42,070 bases of DNA. Origin: Candidatus Parcubacteria bacterium. Lineage in GTDB: Bacteria > Patescibacteriota > Minisyncoccia > Phycocordibacterales > CALRHW01. Position 1 is the first letter of the stretch. The number at the start of each line of letters is the position of its first letter. The translations under genes and the position numbers were made by a program. The DNA lies in the NCBI GenBank assembly GCA_009691505.1, contig SICJ01000002.1:1-42070 (forward strand), in the 5' to 3' direction. Positions 5,897-41,219 of the stretch are shown in pieces. Under the pieces are notes generated by a model, which did no database searches, was not told the DNA's origin, and saw nothing but the letters and a program-made list of their open reading frames with translations.

Positions 5897-7420
5897 TTAA
5901 TTATCTCGCAAAATTTTTACTTTCGCACCGATACTACATAGTCTTTTTATGATATCTTCGTAGCCACGATTTATACTATATATGTTGCGAAGTATTGATT
6001 TGCCACTTGCCCCCAGCATTCCTATGAGAATAATAGCGCCAGGACGTAGAGCGGGCGGACAAATAACCTCCGCTGATTTCAATTTTGTCGGCCCAGTAAT
6101 ATATAGTCGGTGTGGATCTACGAGATTTGTATTTGCTCCGAGTTTGTCTATGTCCTTCATGTAAATTGCGCGCTTTTCATAAGCCCAATCGTGGATGAAA
6201 GTTGTGCCTGTCGCCTGTGTTGCAATGATTGCAAAAAAAGGAAGATTGTCCATGTTGAGTCCTGGGTAGGGTCGGCACTCTATTTTTTCTTCAAGGGCGG
6301 TGAGTTTGGATGGAAAAGTTGTGATGTCTACAAGGTCGGTGTATTCATTTAATGCTTTGTATTTTTCGCTTCTTTTATATTTGAACCCCATTTTTTCTAG
6401 TTTAAGTAATTCAATTTCCAAAAAATCTATTGGACAACGTTTGATGATGATAGAAGAATTTGTGACGATGGCTGCCGCAAGAAAAAACATAGATTCAATA
6501 GGATCTTCCATAAGATAATATGTGACAGGTGTATTTATATTTTCTACTCCATAAATAGTGATATTTGTAGTACCTATACCTTCTACCTTTACCCCACATT
6601 TTTCTAAAAATAGACAAACTTCTTGTCCCATATAATTTGCTGATGCAAATTTAATAACGGTCTTGCCTGGGATAAGCGCCGCCGCCATTATTGCATTTTC
6701 TGTCACGGTGTCTCCAGATTCATATAGCACTATTTCCGCAGGTCTTAGTTTTGATGACGATATTTCATAGTTATCTTTGTTTGTTTTTATATTTACACCA
6801 AGTTTTTCTAACGCGAAAAAATGAGGACGCACAGTGCGTGAACCCAGGTTGCATCCACCTGGTTGAGGAATCTTAAAATTTTTTAGGTTGTGGATAAGCG
6901 GTCCGATAAGCATAATAATACTTCGTGTTTTTCCCGCCGCAGCGCCGTCTATATTTTTTATTGCAAAAGTTTTTGGAGGTTTTATTTCTACGTCGTTGCC
7001 GTGCCACTTTACATTTACGCCGATACTTTCAAACACTTCAATCATTCTATACACCTCCTCTATTTTCGGGACGTTTTTTATTGTCGTCGTGTTGGTATTG
7101 AGCAGGGAAGAACAGAGTATTCCCATCGCTCCGTTTTTAGAAGTTTTAGTAACGATTTCTCCTGAAAGTTTTCTACCGCCCTCTATTTCAATATTTAACG
7201 CGCCAGTTGAAAGTGTGACGATGTCGCGATTGAGCGCGTCACTGATTTTTGAAATCATTTCTGTGGTCAGGTTTTGCTCACCTTTTTCAATACGCGCCAC
7301 AGCGCTTTGCGTTGTGCCGAGTTTTTTTGCAAACTCTGCTTGTGTAATTCCTCGTTCTTCGCGAAGCGTCTGCGCCAGTTTTCCTATGTGTGCAAATTTT
7401 TTGTTGGCATTTTTGGGCAT
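5897..7420 (-). CDS. murA: XRE-family HTH domain fused to UDP-N-acetylglucosamine 1-carboxyvinyltransferase (MurA)
   Basis: Residues about 10-66 (LREERGITQAEFAKKLGTTQSAVARIEKGEQNLT) form a classic Cro/C1 HTH. The rest aligns with MurA, including the catalytic-Cys loop PQPGGCNLGSRTVRPH. Confidence 0.88.
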   Translation of the reverse strand: MPKNANKKFAHIGKLAQTLREERGITQAEFAKKLGTTQSAVARIEKGEQNLTTEMISKISDALNRDIVTLSTGALNIEIEGGRKLSGEIVTKTSKNGAMGILCSSLLNTNTTTIKNVPKIEEVYRMIEVFESIGVNVKWHGNDVEIKPPKTFAIKNIDGAAAGKTRSIIMLIGPLIHNLKNFKIPQPGGCNLGSRTVRPHFFALEKLGVNIKTNKDNYEISSSKLRPAEIVLYESGDTVTENAIMAAALIPGKTVIKFASANYMGQEVCLFLEKCGVKVEGIGTTNITIYGVENINTPVTYYLMEDPIESMFFLAAAIVTNSSIIIKRCPIDFLEIELLKLEKMGFKYKRSEKYKALNEYTDLVDITTFPSKLTALEEKIECRPYPGLNMDNLPFFAIIATQATGTTFIHDWAYEKRAIYMKDIDKLGANTNLVDPHRLYITGPTKLKSAEVICPPALRPGAIILIGMLGASGKSILRNIYSINRGYEDIIKRLCSIGAKVKILRDN

Positions 7421-7446: not shown

Positions 7447-7455
7447 ATTATAACA
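7447..7455 (-). promoter_or_regulatory. Extended -10 (TGtTATAAT on the minus strand) for HTH-murA
   Basis: The minus strand reads TGtTATAAT followed by a 26-nt A-rich leader with no SD. A possible -35 (TTGATT) lies inside the left arm of the 7469-7601 palindrome. Confidence 0.45.
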
Positions 7456-7459
7456 TATA

Positions 7460-7468
7460 TGCTATAAT
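7460..7468 (+). promoter_or_regulatory. Extended -10 (TGcTATAAT) pointing into the palindromic element
   Basis: A consensus extended -10. The predicted transcription start, near 7475, falls a few nt inside the left arm. Confidence 0.45.
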
Positions 7469-7601
7469 AAATCAAAACATTAATAAAAAGCCTGTGCTTT
7501 CAGAGCACGCGTAAAAATCTGCTGATTTTTCTGCTCCGCTCGGCGCCGACGCGCCTGCGCGAGTCTCTTCAAGCACAGGCTTTTTATTAATGTTTTGATT
7601 T
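7469..7601. repeat. Palindromic element A: perfect 31-bp inverted repeat around a 71-nt core with an AT hairpin and a GC hairpin
   Basis: 7469-7499 is the exact reverse complement of 7571-7601. Inner stems are AAAAATC/GATTTTT (7513-7530) and CGC-tc-GGCGC...GCGCC-t-GCG (7537-7559). Confidence 0.9.
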
Positions 7602-7652
7602 CTTTAAACATTTGTCAATCTTCCCAAACTCCCTTATGATATGCTTATCTTT

Positions 7653-8666
7653 ATGTCATTTTTCTCAAAAAAACTCGGTATTGATTTGGGAACCACAAGC
7701 ACCCTTGTGTATGTGCCTGGAAAGGGAATTGTCCTAAACGAGCCTTCTGTCGTTGCTATTTCTGAAGAAGACAACAGAATCCTCGCTATTGGTCTTGAAG
7801 CAAAAAATATGATCGGTCGCACACCTGAGAGCATTATTGCTTATCGTCCGATGAAAGACGGAGTCATTGCAGATTATCGTGTGACAGAAGCAATGCTTCG
7901 TTATTATATAAACAAAGCGCTCGGCAAGTGGAATTTATCAAAGCCAGAAGTGCTGGTGTCTGTGCCCGCAGGAGTCACATCCACAGAACGTCGTGCGGTC
8001 GTGGAGGCCGCTATTCGTGCAGGTGCAAAAAATGCTTATGTTGTAAAAGAACCGATTCTTGCAGCGATTGGTGCAGGGATTCCTATCCAAGAAGCGATGG
8101 GACACATGGTAGTAGATATTGGCGGAGGTACGACAGACGTCGCTGTTATTTCTCTTGGAGGAATTGTCGCAGCGACTTCTGTAAAATGTGCAGGTAATAA
8201 AATTGATTATGCGATTACTGATTACATTAAAAAACAATTCAATCTAGGTATAGGCGACAAAACCGCTGAAGATATAAAAATAAAAGTGGGCTCTGCTATT
8301 CCACTTGATGAAGAGCTTGCGGTGACGATAAAAGGACGAGATTTTGTGACAGGTCTTCCTCGTTCAATTGAAATTAAAACCAACGAAATAGTAAAAGCTA
8401 TCAACAAAGAACTTCGCGAAATCGTAAAAGCAATTAAAGATGTATTTCAAGATACTCCACCAGAGCTTGCGTCAGATATTATAGATAATGGAATTATTAT
8501 GACAGGTGGTTCATCACAGCTTCGTAACCTTCCAGATCTTGTTTATCGTCGCACAGGTGTAAAAGCCGTCCTTGCAGAAGACGCATTGTATTGTGTAGTG
8601 AAAGGGACAGGAATTGCCCTAGAGCATCTAGATGTATACAAAAAGAGTATTATTGCTAAGAGGTAG
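7653..8666 (+). CDS. mreB: Rod shape-determining protein MreB (paralog 1)
   Basis: Actin-fold motifs GIDLGT, VVDIGGGTTD and MTGGSS. I placed the start at the second ATG (MSFFSKKLGIDLGT); the ORF opens at 7641. Confidence 0.9.
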   Translation: MSFFSKKLGIDLGTTSTLVYVPGKGIVLNEPSVVAISEEDNRILAIGLEAKNMIGRTPESIIAYRPMKDGVIADYRVTEAMLRYYINKALGKWNLSKPEVLVSVPAGVTSTERRAVVEAAIRAGAKNAYVVKEPILAAIGAGIPIQEAMGHMVVDIGGGTTDVAVISLGGIVAATSVKCAGNKIDYAITDYIKKQFNLGIGDKTAEDIKIKVGSAIPLDEELAVTIKGRDFVTGLPRSIEIKTNEIVKAINKELREIVKAIKDVFQDTPPELASDIIDNGIIMTGGSSQLRNLPDLVYRRTGVKAVLAEDALYCVVKGTGIALEHLDVYKKSIIAKR

Positions 8667-10390: not shown

Positions 10391-11488
10391 ATGTCCATAA
10401 TAATTTTCATAATAATTTTAGCAGTTTTGATTCTCGTCCATGAGTTTGGGCATTTTATCGTGGCTGTAAAATCGGGGATTAAGGTAAGTGAGTTTGGGAT
10501 TGGTTTTCCCCCTCGCTTAAAAAAACTTTTTAGATGGAAAGAAACAGATTTTACTTTAAACGCTATCCCTTTCGGCGGTTTTGTAAAAATTTTCGGCGAA
10601 AATCCTAACGAAGAATCTATTTCTGGTCCAGATAGTGCGCGGAGTTTTGTAAATAAATCAAAATGGATTCAATCGCTCGTGCTCGTGGCGGGCGTGAGTT
10701 TTAATATTATTTTTGCTTGGCTCCTCATTTCGGCTGGATTTATGTCTGGTTTGCCGACTCCTGTAGACTACGGCGGTCCGGGAAAAATAGAAAACGCGCG
10801 AGTAATTATTACCAGCGTTACAAAAGATTCTCCTGCAGAAAAAGCAAATCTAAAAACAGGCGACGCTATTATAAGTATTGCATCAGGAAAAAATACTCTG
10901 TTTGCGCCTCTTTCCCCAGAAAATGTTTCTGAGTTTATTAAAAATAGTGGTGACGAAAAAATAGACATAGTTTATACGAGAGGAGAAACCGAGCTTCGTT
11001 CTAGTGTGTTGCCTGTCGTCGGAATTGTAGAAAACAAAAAAGCTATCGGTATTTCTATGGATCTCATAGGTATTTTACATTTGCCTTTTTATCAGGCGTT
11101 TTGGGAAGGAGCAAAAACAACAGTCTCTCTTTTGCAAGCCATCGTTGTTGGGCTTTATGGTTTTCTGCGTGACATCGTTTTGGGTCGTGGTGGTTTTTCA
11201 CAAGTGACTGGTCCTGTGGGCATTGTCGGCATGGTGGGGGACGTGTCGCATCTTGGTTTTATTTATCTGCTTTCTTTCACAGCTTTTATTTCGCTAAATC
11301 TTGCGGTGATAAATTTACTTCCATTTCCAGCACTTGACGGCGGACGTTTACTTTTTGTTTTTATTGAAGCGATACGTCGAAAACCCATCAGTGTGCGTGT
11401 GGCCAACACTTGCAACGGCGTCGGTTTTTCTCTACTCATTTTACTTATGGTTGCGGTGACGGTGCATGATGTGATAAAGCTGTTTTAA
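10391..11488 (+). CDS. rseP: RIP metalloprotease RseP (site-2 protease, M50) with PDZ domain
   Basis: HEFGHF zinc motif in TM1, a central PDZ-like segment, and the C-terminal NLLPFPALDGG motif. Confidence 0.9.
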   Translation: MSIIIFIIILAVLILVHEFGHFIVAVKSGIKVSEFGIGFPPRLKKLFRWKETDFTLNAIPFGGFVKIFGENPNEESISGPDSARSFVNKSKWIQSLVLVAGVSFNIIFAWLLISAGFMSGLPTPVDYGGPGKIENARVIITSVTKDSPAEKANLKTGDAIISIASGKNTLFAPLSPENVSEFIKNSGDEKIDIVYTRGETELRSSVLPVVGIVENKKAIGISMDLIGILHLPFYQAFWEGAKTTVSLLQAIVVGLYGFLRDIVLGRGGFSQVTGPVGIVGMVGDVSHLGFIYLLSFTAFISLNLAVINLLPFPALDGGRLLFVFIEAIRRKPISVRVANTCNGVGFSLLILLMVAVTVHDVIKLF

Positions 11489-30582: not shown

Positions 30583-31650
30583 ATGTCAGTTGAAACCTTA
30601 TTTATTATTTTACTTTTAGCGCTTTTAGCAAATGCTATTTTTATTTGGCTTATATTTAAACGTGTCGTTGGAAAACCAGAGCTAGAAGAAAAAAAAGACA
30701 CTGGTCTCAATCTTCTTCTTCAACAAATGCACGAACTCACTCGCACAGTGGATTCAAAAATCGGTGAGAGCAGTAAGCAGGTAAATGAGTCTATGCGAAA
30801 TCAGTTTAGTGAATCATCGCGCTTGATACGGGAAGTAACGGCAAGCTTGACGAAGCTAGACGAGACCAATAAACAAGTCGTATCATTTGCCGACCAACTA
30901 CAGTCGCTCCAAGATATTTTAAAAAATCCAAAACAGCGCGGAATAGTGGGGGAGTATTATTTGGAAACGCTCCTTAAAAACGTACTTCCGCCTGGCTCGT
31001 ATCAGATGCAATATGCTTTTAAAAATGGCGACATCGTGGACGCAGTAGTTTTTGTAAAAGATAAAGTTATTCCGATTGACTCCAAGTTTTCTCTAGAAAA
31101 TTACAATAAAATAATTGAAGAAAAAAATCCCGCAGAAAAAGAGCGGTTGGAGAAAGTTTTTGTAAATGATTTAAAGAACCGCATTTCTGAGACCGCAAAA
31201 TACATACGCCCGACAGAAGACACGATGGATTTTGCTTTTATGTTTATTCCGCACGAAGCGATATATTATGATCTTTTGATAAATAAAGTTGGCGCATCGG
31301 CAGAAGACGCGGAAAATCTAATCCAGCGTGCGGCAGGAAAATACAAAGTTATTATTGTGTCGCCCACTTCTTTTTTAGCATATTTACAGACAGTGCTCCA
31401 AGGTTTAAAAGCGATGCAAATTGAAGATACTGCAAAGGATATTGTCAAACACGTCGGCGAGCTCGGTAGACATTTAAAAAGCTACAACGATTATCACAAA
31501 AAAATGGGCAACGCTCTTTCAACTACAGTAAACCATTTTAACGCGAGCTCAAATGAATTTAAAAAAATAGATAAGGATGTGATGCGTATTACAGAGCAAG
31601 AGATTGGGATAAAAGCCATAACTCTTGAAAAGCCAGAAATTGAGGAGTGA
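30583..31650 (+). CDS. rmuC: DNA recombination protein RmuC
   Basis: N-terminal TM, a long coiled coil, and the C-terminal RmuC nuclease-like region (VDAVVF...IPIDSKF...FMFIPHEA). Confidence 0.85.
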   Translation: MSVETLFIILLLALLANAIFIWLIFKRVVGKPELEEKKDTGLNLLLQQMHELTRTVDSKIGESSKQVNESMRNQFSESSRLIREVTASLTKLDETNKQVVSFADQLQSLQDILKNPKQRGIVGEYYLETLLKNVLPPGSYQMQYAFKNGDIVDAVVFVKDKVIPIDSKFSLENYNKIIEEKNPAEKERLEKVFVNDLKNRISETAKYIRPTEDTMDFAFMFIPHEAIYYDLLINKVGASAEDAENLIQRAAGKYKVIIVSPTSFLAYLQTVLQGLKAMQIEDTAKDIVKHVGELGRHLKSYNDYHKKMGNALSTTVNHFNASSNEFKKIDKDVMRITEQEIGIKAITLEKPEIEE

Positions 31651-32038: not shown

Positions 32039-32042
32039 GAAT

Positions 32043-32066
32043 AAAACCGCCCAGAAAGGCGGTTTT
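32043..32066. terminator. Bidirectional terminator between rplU and recR
   Basis: AAAACCGCC-cagaaa-GGCGGTTTT. Confidence 0.8.
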
Positions 32067-32067
32067 A

Positions 32068-32685
32068 TTATTGTCTGTTCTGTAAGGCGTTTTTAAGGGT
32101 TTCCGCGTCAGAATATTCAAGCTCCGTTCCTGTGGAAAGCCCGCGTCCGAGTAGGGAAATTTTGATGTTGTGTTTTTGGGTAAGGGGAGCGAGTATTTTT
32201 TTAATGTAATCGCTAGTGTTTTCACCTTCGGGATTTGCATTTACTGCAAGCACGATTTCATGCAAACCTTCGGAAGTGCGAGTTTCTACTGCGCGAAGCA
32301 ATTCTTTAATCCGTATTTTGTTTTCAGGTTGTGATTCTAAAATCGGCACTGTTCCACCAAGCACAAAATATTTTCCATTATAAACACCGGTTTTTTCAAT
32401 ATTTTCCAAATCTACATCGCGACTGACTACGGTGAGCATACTTACGTCGCGATTTTTTGCCGAACAAATGTCGCACGAGTTTGAGTCAGAAAAGTTTTTG
32501 AAAAAGAATCTGTAACAACTTTCGCAAGTTTTCATTTCCTCTTTTATTTTTGCAATCAGGGAAGCGAGCTCGTCTAGATGGCTTTGATTTCTGGTAAGTA
32601 AAAAATACACAAAACGTTTTGCTTGCCGTGGACCTATTCCAGGAAATTCAGAAAAAAAGGAAGTGAGTTTTAAAAGAGTGTTCAT
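32068..32685 (-). CDS. recR: Recombination protein RecR
   Basis: FPGIGPRQAKRF helix-hairpin-helix, a Cys4 finger and a Toprim domain. I placed the start at MNTLLKL (32685) rather than where the ORF opens (32823), which would overlap dnaB. Confidence 0.9.
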   Translation of the reverse strand: MNTLLKLTSFFSEFPGIGPRQAKRFVYFLLTRNQSHLDELASLIAKIKEEMKTCESCYRFFFKNFSDSNSCDICSAKNRDVSMLTVVSRDVDLENIEKTGVYNGKYFVLGGTVPILESQPENKIRIKELLRAVETRTSEGLHEIVLAVNANPEGENTSDYIKKILAPLTQKHNIKISLLGRGLSTGTELEYSDAETLKNALQNRQ

Positions 32686-36626: not shown

Positions 36627-37859
36627 ATGGATTCACGGTTTTCTAAACATAGAATTTTTGTAATAGCTTCACTCCTTATAGTAGGAGCTTCTTTTTTTTG
36701 CGGATATTATTTTGGTTCTCAAAGCATAAATGAAACCAAAAGCTCCGCCAACTTAGAAAATAAAAACCCAACTTCTTTTGTAAATGCCAATTTTGCGCCG
36801 TTTTGGAAAGCTTGGGATATTCTAAATGAAAAACATGTTTCATCAAGCTCTTCTACTCCTGTTCTTGCCGACCAAGACAAAATTTGGGGCGCGATAGGGG
36901 GTTTGGCCGATTCTTTTGGTGACCCTTACACGATTTTCTTGCCTCCAGCAGACGCAGAGATATTTGAAAGCGACATAAGTGGCAATTTTCAAGGTGTAGG
37001 AATGGAAATTGGAATGCGCGACGGGATACTCACTGTTATTTCTCCACTAAAAGGCACTCCAGCTCAAAGATCAGGAATTCTTTCTGGTGATAAAATTTTG
37101 AAAATTGATGACACTTCCACCGCCAAACTTAATTCTGAGGAGGCAATAAAACTTATTCGTGGAAAAGAGGGAACTAAAGTAAAATTTACTATTTTACGCG
37201 GCGTTGAAAGTGTCCCAATTGAAATTTATGTGACTCGTGCGACGATAGACATACCGACTATCAGTACTCATCTACGAAATGACGGCATATTTGTAATTGA
37301 ACTTTATAATTTTTCTGCAGTGTCCGCTGATTTGTTTAGAAAATCTCTTCGCAACTTTGTGTCTTCTGGAAGTAAAAAACTCGTGCTGGATTTACGTGGA
37401 AATCCCGGAGGATATTTGGAAGCAAGCATAGATATGGCGAGTTGGTTTTTGCCACTCGGCGATGAGGTAGTGCGAGAAGATTTTGGAACAAATGAAGACG
37501 AGATTGTGCATAGAAGTAAAGGTTATAATATTTTTAATGACAAATTAAAAATGGCGGTACTTATAGATGGTGGCTCAGCATCCGCTTCAGAGATTTTAGC
37601 TGGCGCTCTTCAAGAGCATAATGTAGCAAAACTTGTCGGTGTAAACTCATACGGAAAAGGCTCTGTGCAAGAACTCATAAAAATCACTCCAGACACTTCT
37701 TTAAAGGTGACTATCGCTCGTTGGCTCACACCAAACGGTAAATCTATTTCAGATGGCGGGCTCAAGCCTGACATTGAAGTAAAAAAGACTGAAGATGATA
37801 TAAAAAAGGGTCTTGATCCACAAATGTCTTCGGCTATTGAGTATTTAATGAAAAAGTGA
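36627..37859 (+). CDS. Carboxy-terminal processing protease (S41) with PDZ domain
   Basis: PDZ segment (GILSGDKILKIDD), RGNPGGYL, and the GGSASASEILAGAL catalytic Ser region. Confidence 0.9.
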   Translation: MDSRFSKHRIFVIASLLIVGASFFCGYYFGSQSINETKSSANLENKNPTSFVNANFAPFWKAWDILNEKHVSSSSSTPVLADQDKIWGAIGGLADSFGDPYTIFLPPADAEIFESDISGNFQGVGMEIGMRDGILTVISPLKGTPAQRSGILSGDKILKIDDTSTAKLNSEEAIKLIRGKEGTKVKFTILRGVESVPIEIYVTRATIDIPTISTHLRNDGIFVIELYNFSAVSADLFRKSLRNFVSSGSKKLVLDLRGNPGGYLEASIDMASWFLPLGDEVVREDFGTNEDEIVHRSKGYNIFNDKLKMAVLIDGGSASASEILAGALQEHNVAKLVGVNSYGKGSVQELIKITPDTSLKVTIARWLTPNGKSISDGGLKPDIEVKKTEDDIKKGLDPQMSSAIEYLMKK

Positions 37860-37889
37860 TAGAAATAGGCTTATTAAAAATGAAACATC

Positions 37890-38336
37890 ATGAAAATAAT
37901 ATTACTTAAAACTGTGCCGAAGGTAGGACAAAAATATGAGGTGAAAGACATTTCAGATGGACACGCGCTCAATTTTCTTATCCCAAAAAAGCTCGCGGAA
38001 GTGGCGACTCCTTCTGCTATAAAAAGAATCGGACTATTGCAAGCAAAAGACATGCAAGAAAAAAATATTCACGCAGACTTGCTCGCTAAAAACCTAGAGG
38101 ATATAAAAGGTGCACGTGTAGAATTTACAGAAAAAGCGAGCGACAAAGGGCATCTTTTTTCAAGTATTCATAAAGAGCGTATCGTGGAGGCTCTCAAAGC
38201 ACAGACTCGGCTAGACATAAATGCTGATTTTATAGATTTGGCAAAACCTATTAAAGAAGTTGGTGAACATAAAGTGACTGTAAAAGTGGGGGACAAAAGC
38301 GTGGAGTTTTTGGTGGTGGTTAATTCAGTAAAATAA
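37890..38336 (+). CDS. rplI: 50S ribosomal protein L9
   Basis: MKIILLKTVPKVGQKYEVKDISDGHALNFLIP is typical of bL9. Confidence 0.93.
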   Translation: MKIILLKTVPKVGQKYEVKDISDGHALNFLIPKKLAEVATPSAIKRIGLLQAKDMQEKNIHADLLAKNLEDIKGARVEFTEKASDKGHLFSSIHKERIVEALKAQTRLDINADFIDLAKPIKEVGEHKVTVKVGDKSVEFLVVVNSVK

Positions 38337-38439
38337 AAATAACCTCAAAAAGGGTACGGATTTTTTAAGCTTAAAAAATCCTGAAGCGCTCGGCTCGTCA
38401 GCCTCGCGACCCCCTTTTTGAGGTTATTTTTATTTTACT
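38327..38439. repeat. Palindromic element B: perfect 28-bp inverted repeat around a 57-nt core with an AT hairpin and a GC hairpin
   Basis: 38327-38354 is the exact reverse complement of 38412-38439. The core holds the perfect 24-nt palindrome GGATTTTTTAAGCTTAAAAAATCC (38358-38381) and CGC-tc-GGC...GCC-tc-GCG (38387-38408). The left arm overlaps the rplI stop. Confidence 0.9.
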
Positions 38440-38441
38440 AC

Positions 38442-38714
38442 CTAACCAACATGCACAATCTTTTTGATTTTGAAAGAGTTGTCAAAATGAGTCTTGCGAG
38501 TTTTTGCAAATTGCACGATACCATCTTTTAAAGCGAAAAGTGTTCGGTCTTTTCCCATTCCCACGTTTCGGCCAGGAAGCACGTCTGTACCTCTTTGACG
38601 CACTATAATAGAGCCAGCTTTTGCTACTCCTCCCGCAGTGATCTTTACACCGAGGTACTTTGGATTTGAATCTCTGCCGTTTTTGGTTGACCCACCGGCT
38701 TTTTTGGTTGCCAT
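38442..38714 (-). CDS. rpmA: 50S ribosomal protein L27
   Basis: [24 protein letters not shown]... is typical of bL27. Confidence 0.95.
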
Positions 38715-38754
38715 ACTATATTATTTATATATAATCTGTTAAAATATCAGTCAA

Positions 38755-39396
38755 ATGAGTATAAAAGATAATCTCCTAAAAATCAAGTATAAAAACCCAC
38801 TTATAGGCAAAACAGCCGTTTTTGCCCTTATTTTTGGGCTCGTTTTCATATTCTCATTCCAGCTTGGGAGACTTACGACCTTAAGTGATGCAAGGACACC
38901 CATTGTTCTGGGGTCATTTGAAACGACAGTTTTGGCGTCAGCCGAGCCATCAAAAACTACTTCCGAAACTACTCCCGAGAGCAAAAAAGAACAAAAAATT
39001 TCTGCTGGCGCAGTGGTCGCTTCAAAGCAAGGTAAAACTTATCATTTACCAAGTTGTCCTGGTGCAAAAAACATTGCCCCAGAAAATAAAATCACTTTTA
39101 CTTCACGGGCGATAGCGCAAAAAGCTGGCTACTCTCCCGCAAAAAATTGTAAAGGTCTTTCCGCATTAAAAAGCGGACTCACTGCCAACCTCAATATTGA
39201 AACTGGTAAAAAGGACGGGGTGGTCGCTGTACCACTTTTTGCAGTCACAAAAAAAGGCAACAAATCTTATGTTCAAAAAGTTTCTGGAGAAAATGCCGTG
39301 CAAACTGAAGTGACTCTTGGAATCGTTGGTCAAGATGGAATGACTGAAGTATTGTCTGGTCTCGGCGAGGGCGATACGGTAGAAGTAGGTCAATAA
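38755..39396 (+). CDS. Composite membrane-anchored protein: TM, then a YHxPxC metal-binding-like module, then a C-terminal barrel resembling efflux adaptor (HlyD/MacA) tails
   Basis: KTYHLPSCPGAKNIAPENKITFTSRAIAQKAGYSPAKNC, then GVVAVPLFAVTKKGNKSYVQKVSGENAVQTEVTLGIVGQDGMTEVLSGLGEGDTVEV. Confidence 0.5.
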   Translation: MSIKDNLLKIKYKNPLIGKTAVFALIFGLVFIFSFQLGRLTTLSDARTPIVLGSFETTVLASAEPSKTTSETTPESKKEQKISAGAVVASKQGKTYHLPSCPGAKNIAPENKITFTSRAIAQKAGYSPAKNCKGLSALKSGLTANLNIETGKKDGVVAVPLFAVTKKGNKSYVQKVSGENAVQTEVTLGIVGQDGMTEVLSGLGEGDTVEVGQ

Positions 39397-41063: not shown

Positions 41064-41219
41064 TGATTATCAAGAGAGTGGCGAGAACACTGGTTCTAGG
41101 ACCCACCGGCAACCAATTAGAAATAATAAGGTGCTAAATCCAGCCAAAGTATTGCGAAAGCAATATTATGGAAAGATAAGACTAGTCATCTATCTTTCCT
41201 CTTTATGAGGAATTTTTTA
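41064..41219 (+). promoter_or_regulatory. SAM-I (S-box) riboswitch with terminator/antiterminator platform
   Basis: TTATCAAGAGAG...GGCAACC...GGTGCTAAATCC...AGATAAG matches the S-box core. The antiterminator is GGAAAGATA/TATCTTTCC. The terminator is TTCCTC-tttat-GAGGAA plus T6 (41196-41218). Confidence 0.88.

Follow-up and report, generated by a model that had tools for sequence, protein, structure and literature searches.

The bcr1 elements of the Bacillus cereus group are about 155 bp long (Okstad 2004, Klevan 2007, via PMC3184786). They are described there as cruciform-like, with a long closing stem and two independent stem-loops that show compensatory changes; close strains differ in where their copies lie, a number of copies are no longer stable, and the elements carry 5-bp direct repeats (PMC3184786). 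The same source defines miniature inverted-repeat transposable elements (MITEs) by terminal inverted repeats that are conserved between copies and by direct target-site duplications (PMC3184786). The REP sequences of enterobacteria are extragenic palindromes found in 3' untranslated regions (UTRs) and between convergent genes, where they combine the roles of terminator and mRNA stabiliser and occupy positions that vary between strains (bioRxiv 10.64898/2026.03.23.713779). Here we describe a palindromic element, element B, located between the convergent genes rplI and rpmA in a stretch of 42,070 nucleotides from a Candidatus Parcubacteria bacterium (contig SICJ01000002.1, assembly GCA_009691505.1), which we refer to as the window. 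Element B belongs to a family which, set against the descriptions of bcr1, SPRITE and REP, differs from all three: its centre is conserved, its arms are specific to each locus, and it lacks a target duplication. On balance, and with modest confidence, we favour the view that it is a turnover-prone palindromic element, of the kind of bcr1 and SPRITE, that serves as a bidirectional terminator.

The anatomy of the element is clear. As an earlier note on this DNA had stated, the 28 nt at 38327-38354 (AGTAAAATAAAAATAACCTCAAAAAGGG) and those at 38412-38439 are exact reverse complements, two arms separated by 57 nt, and all 28 pairs of this outer stem (P1) are Watson-Crick, without a single G.U. The left arm includes the last 7 coding nucleotides and the TAA stop (38334-38336) of rplI, the gene for ribosomal protein L9 (37890-38336, + strand; an open reading frame, with the Pfam domains Ribosomal_L9_N/C on an identical protein). 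The right arm ends two nucleotides (38440-38441), rather than the three counted in the note, from the stop codon (38442-38444) of rpmA, an open reading frame for ribosomal protein L27 (38442-38714, - strand; Pfam Ribosomal_L27). The interior consists of two adjacent hairpins on the + strand, both already recognised in the note. After a 5' junction, UAC (38355-38357), comes P2 (38358-38381), an AT-rich hairpin formed by the perfect 24-nt palindrome GGATTTTTTAAGCTTAAAAAATCC, with a 10-bp stem and an AGCU loop. A linker, UGAAG (38382-38386), follows, and then P3 (38387-38408), the GC-rich hairpin CGC-UC-GGCU-CGUC-AGCC-UC-GCG, whose upper stem has 4 bp and a CGUC loop, a correction to the layout first proposed; a 3' junction, ACC (38409-38411), leads into the right arm. 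An A-tract (AAAAA, 38347-38351) and a T-tract (TTTTT, 38415-38419) directly flank the GGG and CCC at the inner ends of the arms, so that either strand would carry a U-tract after the hairpin.

Element B and a second locus at 7469-7601, copy A, are the two strongest short-range inverted repeats of the window. As RNA, the two strands of element B fold at -53.8 and -58.5 kcal/mol (z = -10.9 and -11.1, equalled by 0 of 200 shuffles), and with DNA parameters both strands also fold equally well, in agreement with the RNA result. Element B is not an assembly artefact, since an independent ENA contig (L129) spans an identical 113 nt and Logan contigs from three runs, which enter the element from either side, agree with its sequence. 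Matching sequence is present in four other assemblies, only one of which spans the whole element. Three of the Logan contigs (L001, L003 and L004) end either midway through the AT palindrome or within P3 (window positions 38371 and 38398), as expected of a de Bruijn graph at palindromes.

Perfect inverted repeats around a short asymmetric segment could also belong to an invertible DNA switch, in which the 28-nt repeats would flip the 57-nt segment, and such a switch would fit both the breaks in the short-read contigs and the fact that, in a relative (L138), the copy A locus has its core in the opposite orientation. We regard this explanation as scarcely credible. The window, L129 and the Logan contigs of the three runs all have one orientation, as do all independent assemblies; the contigs break at the centre of the 24-nt palindrome, as the assembly graph predicts; and the arms of L138 differ from those of copy A, so it is not a flipped copy A. 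Moreover, there is no internal promoter and no invertase gene nearby, and a segment of 57 nt leaves very little room for a recombinase synapse.

What makes element B more than a long hairpin is its kinship with other loci. The window contains the 16-base motif CGCTCGGC..GCC..CGCGA in exactly two places, copy A (7537-7562) and element B, each time on the + strand and against an expectation of zero, and at least nine further family members were found in metagenome sequences from Parcubacteria and Saccharibacteria. When species-representative genomes were scanned, most matches were chance ones in GC-rich genomes; 2 of the 119 stretches were real, among the matches listed, and these hold cores matching copy A in a Parcubacteria metagenome-assembled genome (MAG; L008) and in a Saccharibacteria MAG (L010). 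Since a metagenome scan anchored on junction sequences alone found only five loci (L124-L128), the diversity of the family is certainly under-sampled. Together with copy A, these seven form the copy-A-type set of eight, six of which are complete and were aligned.

The six aligned cores are about 90% identical over a gap-free 71-column alignment and adopt one fold: P1, a small internal loop, a further stem (P1b), and a three-way junction with P2, which has 7 bp and a UGCU loop, and P3. In copy A (+ strand) the perfect 31-bp P1 is formed by 7469-7499 and 7571-7601, P1b by 7502-7505 with 7565-7568, P2 by 7513-7530 and P3 by 7535-7562. Across the alignment, 97.6% of cells are paired, and sliding the 3' partners lowers this figure to 39-61%. 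In nine pairs of P1b and P2 both sides have changed, and P3 is invariant; the stems P1, P1b and P2 are thus kept as structure, and P3 and the junctions as sequence. The proposal that structure and not sequence is selected therefore stands for the outer stem, P1b and the AT hairpin, but not for the GC hairpin or the junctions, whose sequence hardly varies. Similarly, the swapped strands of the AT hairpin between the two window loci reflect no more than the free covariation of that stem throughout the family. What is heritable is a core of about 60-70 nt (57-71 nt across subtypes), made of an AT-rich P2 of freely varying stem sequence and a GC-rich P3, CGCUCGG...CGCGA. In the copy-A-type cores the sequence UCUUUUY lies directly 3' of P3 and resembles a conventional terminator on the core strand.

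A covariance model built from copy-A-type cores only gives all eight copies of that type 82-101 bits (92.2 for copy A). Element B is missed with default filters; with the filters off it matches the full model at 21.1 bits on the + strand and 2.7 bits on the - strand, its P2 and P3 aligning to those of the model. With such a score, element B is not the second copy of 7469-7601 that the note had announced; it is a distant relative, a distinct subtype of one family. The shared architecture that had been claimed, with the same order on the same strand, is there, down to the CTG that the linker forms with the preceding C (38381) and that also occurs in copy A. The sole other copy-B-type example found is a decayed element in a relative (L141), with the layout GGGTAC, P2, CTG...GCTCGG...CGCGAC, of which GGGTAC also marks the inner left arm and 5' junction of element B. 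In being a small, non-coding, dispersed element with a closing stem and two stem-loops kept by compensatory changes, in a distribution that varies among close relatives, and in having a decayed copy, the family resembles bcr1. It differs in that bcr1 shares sequence from end to end and has 5-bp direct repeats, whereas here the core alone is shared and there are no direct repeats; the host phylum also differs.

These results bear directly on the simplest alternative, namely that element B is merely a very long bidirectional terminator whose inner hairpins resemble those of copy A by chance or convergence, with no family behind it. Its terminator position, its A/T tracts and the long perfect terminators of relatives would all suit this reading, as would the failure of the copy-A-type model to find it with default filters. 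Nevertheless, we consider it close to refuted. The motif recurs in the window where zero occurrences are expected, the match to the model is full-length and strand-specific, a second copy-B-type core with the same layout sits at the copy A locus in L141, and the ordinary terminators of the window have stems of 12-17 bp and loops of 4-6 nt.

To judge from Rfam 15 and our literature searches, the family is undescribed. Neither window locus, nor any of 8 related loci, matched an Rfam 15 family at gathering or permissive thresholds; at permissive thresholds nothing emerged beyond generic long-hairpin hits of the miRNA precursor type, which scored 24-28 bits where the family thresholds are at least 100. 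The literature searches returned no description of such elements in Patescibacteria. Several known classes could be set aside. A known ribozyme or riboswitch core does not fit, as no hammerhead CUGANGA...GAAA, GNRA loop or group II domain V was seen by eye and none was found at E<=10. A phage, plasmid or viral origin was rejected, as collections of phages, plasmids and viral contigs contain no match to the family. With 2 occurrences in the 42 kb here and none in about 100 kb of relatives, the density is too low for a DNA uptake sequence. In integron attC sites the conserved parts are at the outer ends, whereas here, on inspection of the sequences, they are central, and there is no integrase. 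A 43-amino-acid minus-strand open reading frame that runs through copy A cannot be conserved, because the arms differ in every copy. One further hairpin in L010 (3561-3638), 3' of a 640-amino-acid gene, has 25-nt arms that are 88% complementary and a 28-nt loop unrelated to the core; it was not accepted as a member, and it implies that terminator-like hairpins with large loops occur beyond this family.

The arms tell a different story from the core. The note had treated the long outer palindrome as part of the module, but it is specific to each copy: every copy has an unrelated, near-perfect outer stem of 19-31 bp. When the left and right flanks of the same copy are compared, perfect complementary runs measure 11-31 nt (mean 21.1), against a mean of 7.3 and a maximum of 11 for non-self comparisons, and the left arms of different members have common runs of no more than 10 nt. 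L124 equals copy A at 58 of 60 core positions and has the same P2 stem, and its arms are unrelated; L126 and L127 likewise combine near-identical cores with different arms. A further contig, L128, has the left flank and helix-turn-helix (HTH) gene of L126 on one side of the 60-nt core and the right flank and gene of L127 on the other. Most simply, this reflects an assembly jump over a core that one genome contains more than once; the other reading is real recombination between two copies. No consistent target-site duplication was found in nine members, the best candidates being 2-3-nt AT strings with offsets allowed, and no conserved flanking tetranucleotide or target motif was seen around the members. 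The family is like MITEs, as these are defined in the part of the source cited above, in being small and non-coding, in forming a long hairpin, and in being present or absent at orthologous sites (rplI/rpmA and murA/mreB). The absence of shared terminal inverted repeats and of target-site duplications excludes a classical MITE.

Where, then, do the arms come from? Their outer ends overlap native functional sequence in element B (the end of rplI), copy A, L008 and L127. The C-terminus of the rplI product, ...VVVNSVK*, has the length and pattern seen in relatives, so the end of rplI is native sequence. The left arm of copy A covers the -35 box of the murA promoter, a stretch that L138 has outside its own palindrome, and in L008 and L127 the arms overlap the last codons and the stop of a convergent gene. 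Because the outer ends are native, the partner arm must be a derived inverted copy of host sequence. In element B this applies to the outer 10 nt of the right arm, an inverted copy of the rplI end; a perfect 10-nt complement beside an existing stem is not expected from point mutation. Templated strand-switching at quasi-palindromes is a process that perfects and extends them in just this way. We propose that the outer parts of the arms would arise from the host DNA next to each copy through templated inverted copying, a form of palindrome extension, and would not be carried along with the core. The window also encodes RmuC (Pfam RmuC, about 30583-31650, + strand), approximately 7 kb upstream of element B. 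In E. coli, RmuC limits inversions at short inverted repeats, and it could matter in a genome that tolerates perfect palindromes of 28-31 bp.

The earlier note had suggested comparing orthologous rplI/rpmA spacers, and in these related genomes, which keep the gene order around the two genes, the comparison revealed both presence and absence; the motif, moreover, does occur at other loci. L129, whose RplI is 93% identical, has an identical element. In L134 (76%) and L135 (74%) the spacer holds an ordinary short-loop terminator, and in L130 (71%) and L131 (67%) a plain perfect hairpin with A/T tracts, of 21 bp (10446-10493) and 20 bp (10457-10500), respectively. Given these plain hairpins and terminators, the normal occupant of the spacer is a long Watson-Crick hairpin readable on both strands, and element B is this plain hairpin design with a 57-nt module in place of the loop. 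It resembles the bidirectional terminators of its own lineage (those of L130 and L131, and one in the window at 32040-32069) in its succession of A-tract, stem and T-tract, its perfect pairing and its readability on two strands, and those of L130 and L131 also in position. It differs from them in that their loops are 4-6 nt and their stems 12-21 bp, whereas the two window copies have a branched module, of 57 nt in element B, on stems of 28-31 bp. Two further features of these relatives deserve mention. The L134 spacer (2061-2564) is 504 nt long and contains an apparent small, Cys-rich open reading frame of zinc-ribbon type (...CMECGYNLGGCTKEECPECGEKF...) before its normal terminator. L131, in an otherwise AT-rich genome, has a perfect 16-nt GC-rich inverted repeat (GCGCGCGCTCCTTCTT, 7468-7483 and 7569-7584) with arms 85 nt apart, within the cysteinyl-tRNA synthetase gene region.

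The idea that element B acts as a bidirectional terminator, also raised in the earlier note, fits this picture, as plain bidirectional terminators occupy exactly the same position in relatives. Two convergent genes end at it (rplI at 38336 on the + strand, rpmA at 38442 on the - strand), and an A-tract lies upstream and a T-tract downstream of the stem. We propose that element B would stand in place of an ordinary bidirectional intrinsic terminator, the composite most likely serving as 3'-end hairpin and terminator for both transcripts. This role would impose constraint on both strands, which is consistent with the lack of G.U pairs. Indeed, variable stem positions read in the core orientation show 4 G.U against 3 A.C, and all 59 outer pairs of the two window copies are Watson-Crick; as G.U is not in excess over A.C and the outer pairs are strictly Watson-Crick, there is no sign of single-strand reading. 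In six of eight contexts the core lies directly 3' of a same-strand gene, and three of those also have a convergent partner.

If the rplI/rpmA spacer suggests what the element does, the copy A locus suggests how it behaves in time. Copy A lies between divergent genes, one encoding an HTH-MurA fusion (5897-7420, - strand) and the other mreB (7641-8666, + strand), an order conserved among relatives. The spacer is empty in L139 and L140 (MreB 95% and 94% identical), holds the decayed copy-B-type element in L141 (96%), and in L138, whose MreB is 100% identical as protein and 96.5% as nucleotide sequence, contains a third variant with new perfect 29-bp arms and a core that matches the model on the opposite strand at 19.1 bits. 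Thus, among close relatives one site shows absence, two subtypes and both orientations, which is turnover and unlike the behaviour of a fixed RNA gene. A core that is gained, lost and replaced in this manner would be a mobile or recombinationally transferable passenger.

The HTH-MurA protein is itself unusual in having a DNA-binding domain on a cell-wall enzyme: its 507 amino acids combine an N-terminal XRE-type HTH with MurA (EPSP_synthase fold), and the fusion is kept in relatives (Pfam HTH_3/HTH_31 and PF00275 on 510-amino-acid orthologues). Beside copy A, between murA and mreB, is a near-palindrome at 7447-7468 (ATTATAACATATATGCTATAAT), whose core ATAGCATATAYGCTATA is kept in L138-L141 and, in L140, forms a perfect 20-nt palindrome. 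Its position, with the -35 box of the predicted murA promoter on one side and the -10 box on the other, makes it the probable operator for the HTH domain that MurA carries.

Locally, element B is strikingly conserved. The window and L129 differ at 0 of its 113 nt, while the neighbouring genes are 89.4% (S41 peptidase), 88.8% (rplI) and 95.2% (rpmA) identical and 23% of third-codon positions differ. The difference-free zone extends from 38325 to 38465, bounded by substitutions at 38324 and 38466, and the chance that 113 nucleotides all stay unchanged is about 7e-6 if they diverge at the overall coding rate, or about 1e-13 if they follow the third-position rate. Either strong constraint on the paired structure or a very recent replacement of the segment would explain this zone. 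The divergence between the two sequences is mosaic over window positions 36627-38913, with about 11% on the left (S41 peptidase and rplI), 0% in the element, 4.8% in rpmA and 0.6% in the next gene, a pattern that suggests a recombination boundary at or near the palindrome.

The main rival to a turnover-prone terminator element is a processed small RNA, although we consider it rather unlikely. According to this explanation, the core would be a functional small RNA, transcribed with the upstream gene or alone, and the long stem a handle for processing or stability; an RNase III-type cut of the 28-31-bp stem would release a three-way-junction RNA of about 70-90 nt, in which P3 and the junctions bind protein or RNA. 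The near-invariance of P3 and the junctions across Parcubacteria and Saccharibacteria, combined with stems that covary, is the usual signature of a structured RNA, and the orientation bias (6 of 8 copies after a same-strand gene), the conservation of element B against L129 even at unpaired nucleotides, and an invariant G.U at the base of P2, on the core strand only, point the same way. However, a housekeeping RNA would not usually lack a fixed locus, whereas here close relatives have no copy, or have one of another subtype or of opposite orientation, and the L141 copy is decayed. There is no excess of G.U over A.C at variable positions and no G.U in the outer stems of the window, the arms reach into coding sequence where a terminating ribosome would melt them, and no Rfam family matches.

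It is also tempting to speculate, though we hold this only as a tentative idea, that the family represents a new kind of mobile element in which the two-hairpin core of about 60-70 nt alone is transmitted. The inverted repeats would then be made on site from flanking host DNA, by fold-back or template-switch copying that continues until it meets coding sequence or a promoter, which would leave unique arms and no target-site duplication. Alternatively, or in addition, P3 might mark a trans-acting small RNA freed from 3' UTRs by cleavage of the long stem.

A further explanation, which we judge improbable, is that the element acts as DNA, its cruciform or single-stranded hairpins forming the site of a hairpin-binding enzyme (an HUH or tyrosine transposase of the IS200/IS605 or RAYT kind, a recombinase, or a priming or replication factor), with any effect on transcription being incidental. 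The conserved, GC-rich P3 is the kind of feature that such enzymes read, as in the IS608 and REP/RAYT systems. In addition, either strand folds equally well under DNA parameters, the long stems are strictly Watson-Crick without strand asymmetry, and the presence, absence, replacement and dual orientation at one site look like mobile behaviour. What speaks against a DNA site is that P2 is unlike P3, whereas IS200/IS605 ends carry similar hairpins, that the flanks of the members contain no conserved tetranucleotide or target motif, and that collections of viral contigs, phages and plasmids contain no member of the family. Close to the copies there is no gene for a transposase, a RAYT or a recombinase, and none of the neighbourhoods seen (the 42 kb of this genome and the loci of relatives) contains a RAYT gene.

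That no mobilising enzyme was found also counts against the turnover-prone terminator element that we favour, and several other observations weigh against it. A model search of about 100 kb from relatives (L130, L131, L139 and L140) found no additional copies, so the number per genome may be low for a mobile element, and the loci compared include no clean filled and empty alleles with identical flanks. Divergence from L129 falls to the right of element B as well, so that its identity could reflect a short, recent recombination tract. With respect to termination, a 57-nt branched loop, with only GGG/CCC beside the U-tract, is non-canonical, and a consensus terminator scan did not call element B. 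Finally, the core of L010 is antisense inside an rpsP-KH-trmD operon, and the elements of copy A, L138 and L141 are flanked by divergent promoters, a setting that calls for no terminator.

Compared with the remaining described systems, the situation of element B, L008 and L127 at a terminator position is like that of SPRITE. Nonetheless, SPRITE is a conserved multi-copy sequence within one species, whereas here the stem is unique to each locus and the loop module alone is conserved, and copies A, L138 and L141 are not at gene ends. REP/BIME sequences, to which the REPINs mobilised by RAYT transposases are related, are GC-rich imperfect palindromes that measure about 35 nt and recur hundreds of times with a conserved sequence; here we find an asymmetric two-hairpin core of 57-71 nt with locus-specific arms, in two diverged copies in 42 kb and none in about 100 kb of relatives.

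Genomes of Patescibacteria (the candidate phyla radiation) are tiny and are considered to contain little mobile DNA. A dispersed, structured element with turnover even among near-identical strains would offer a new marker of recent genome dynamics and gene flow in this group, and its core is common to sequences labelled Parcubacteria and Saccharibacteria. The family further suggests that terminator hairpins can be landing sites or carriers for a conserved module. Arms that copy the neighbouring host sequence would imply a palindrome-building process, which may also explain the long perfect terminators of these genomes. In practical terms, such palindromes break short-read assemblies and can give chimeric joins, as L128 may illustrate, and thereby affect the contiguity of MAGs. 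Elsewhere in the window, a SAM riboswitch (41064-41182, + strand; RF00162, 54.4 bits) is followed by a terminator-like hairpin (41196-41212) and then by the S-adenosylmethionine synthetase gene.

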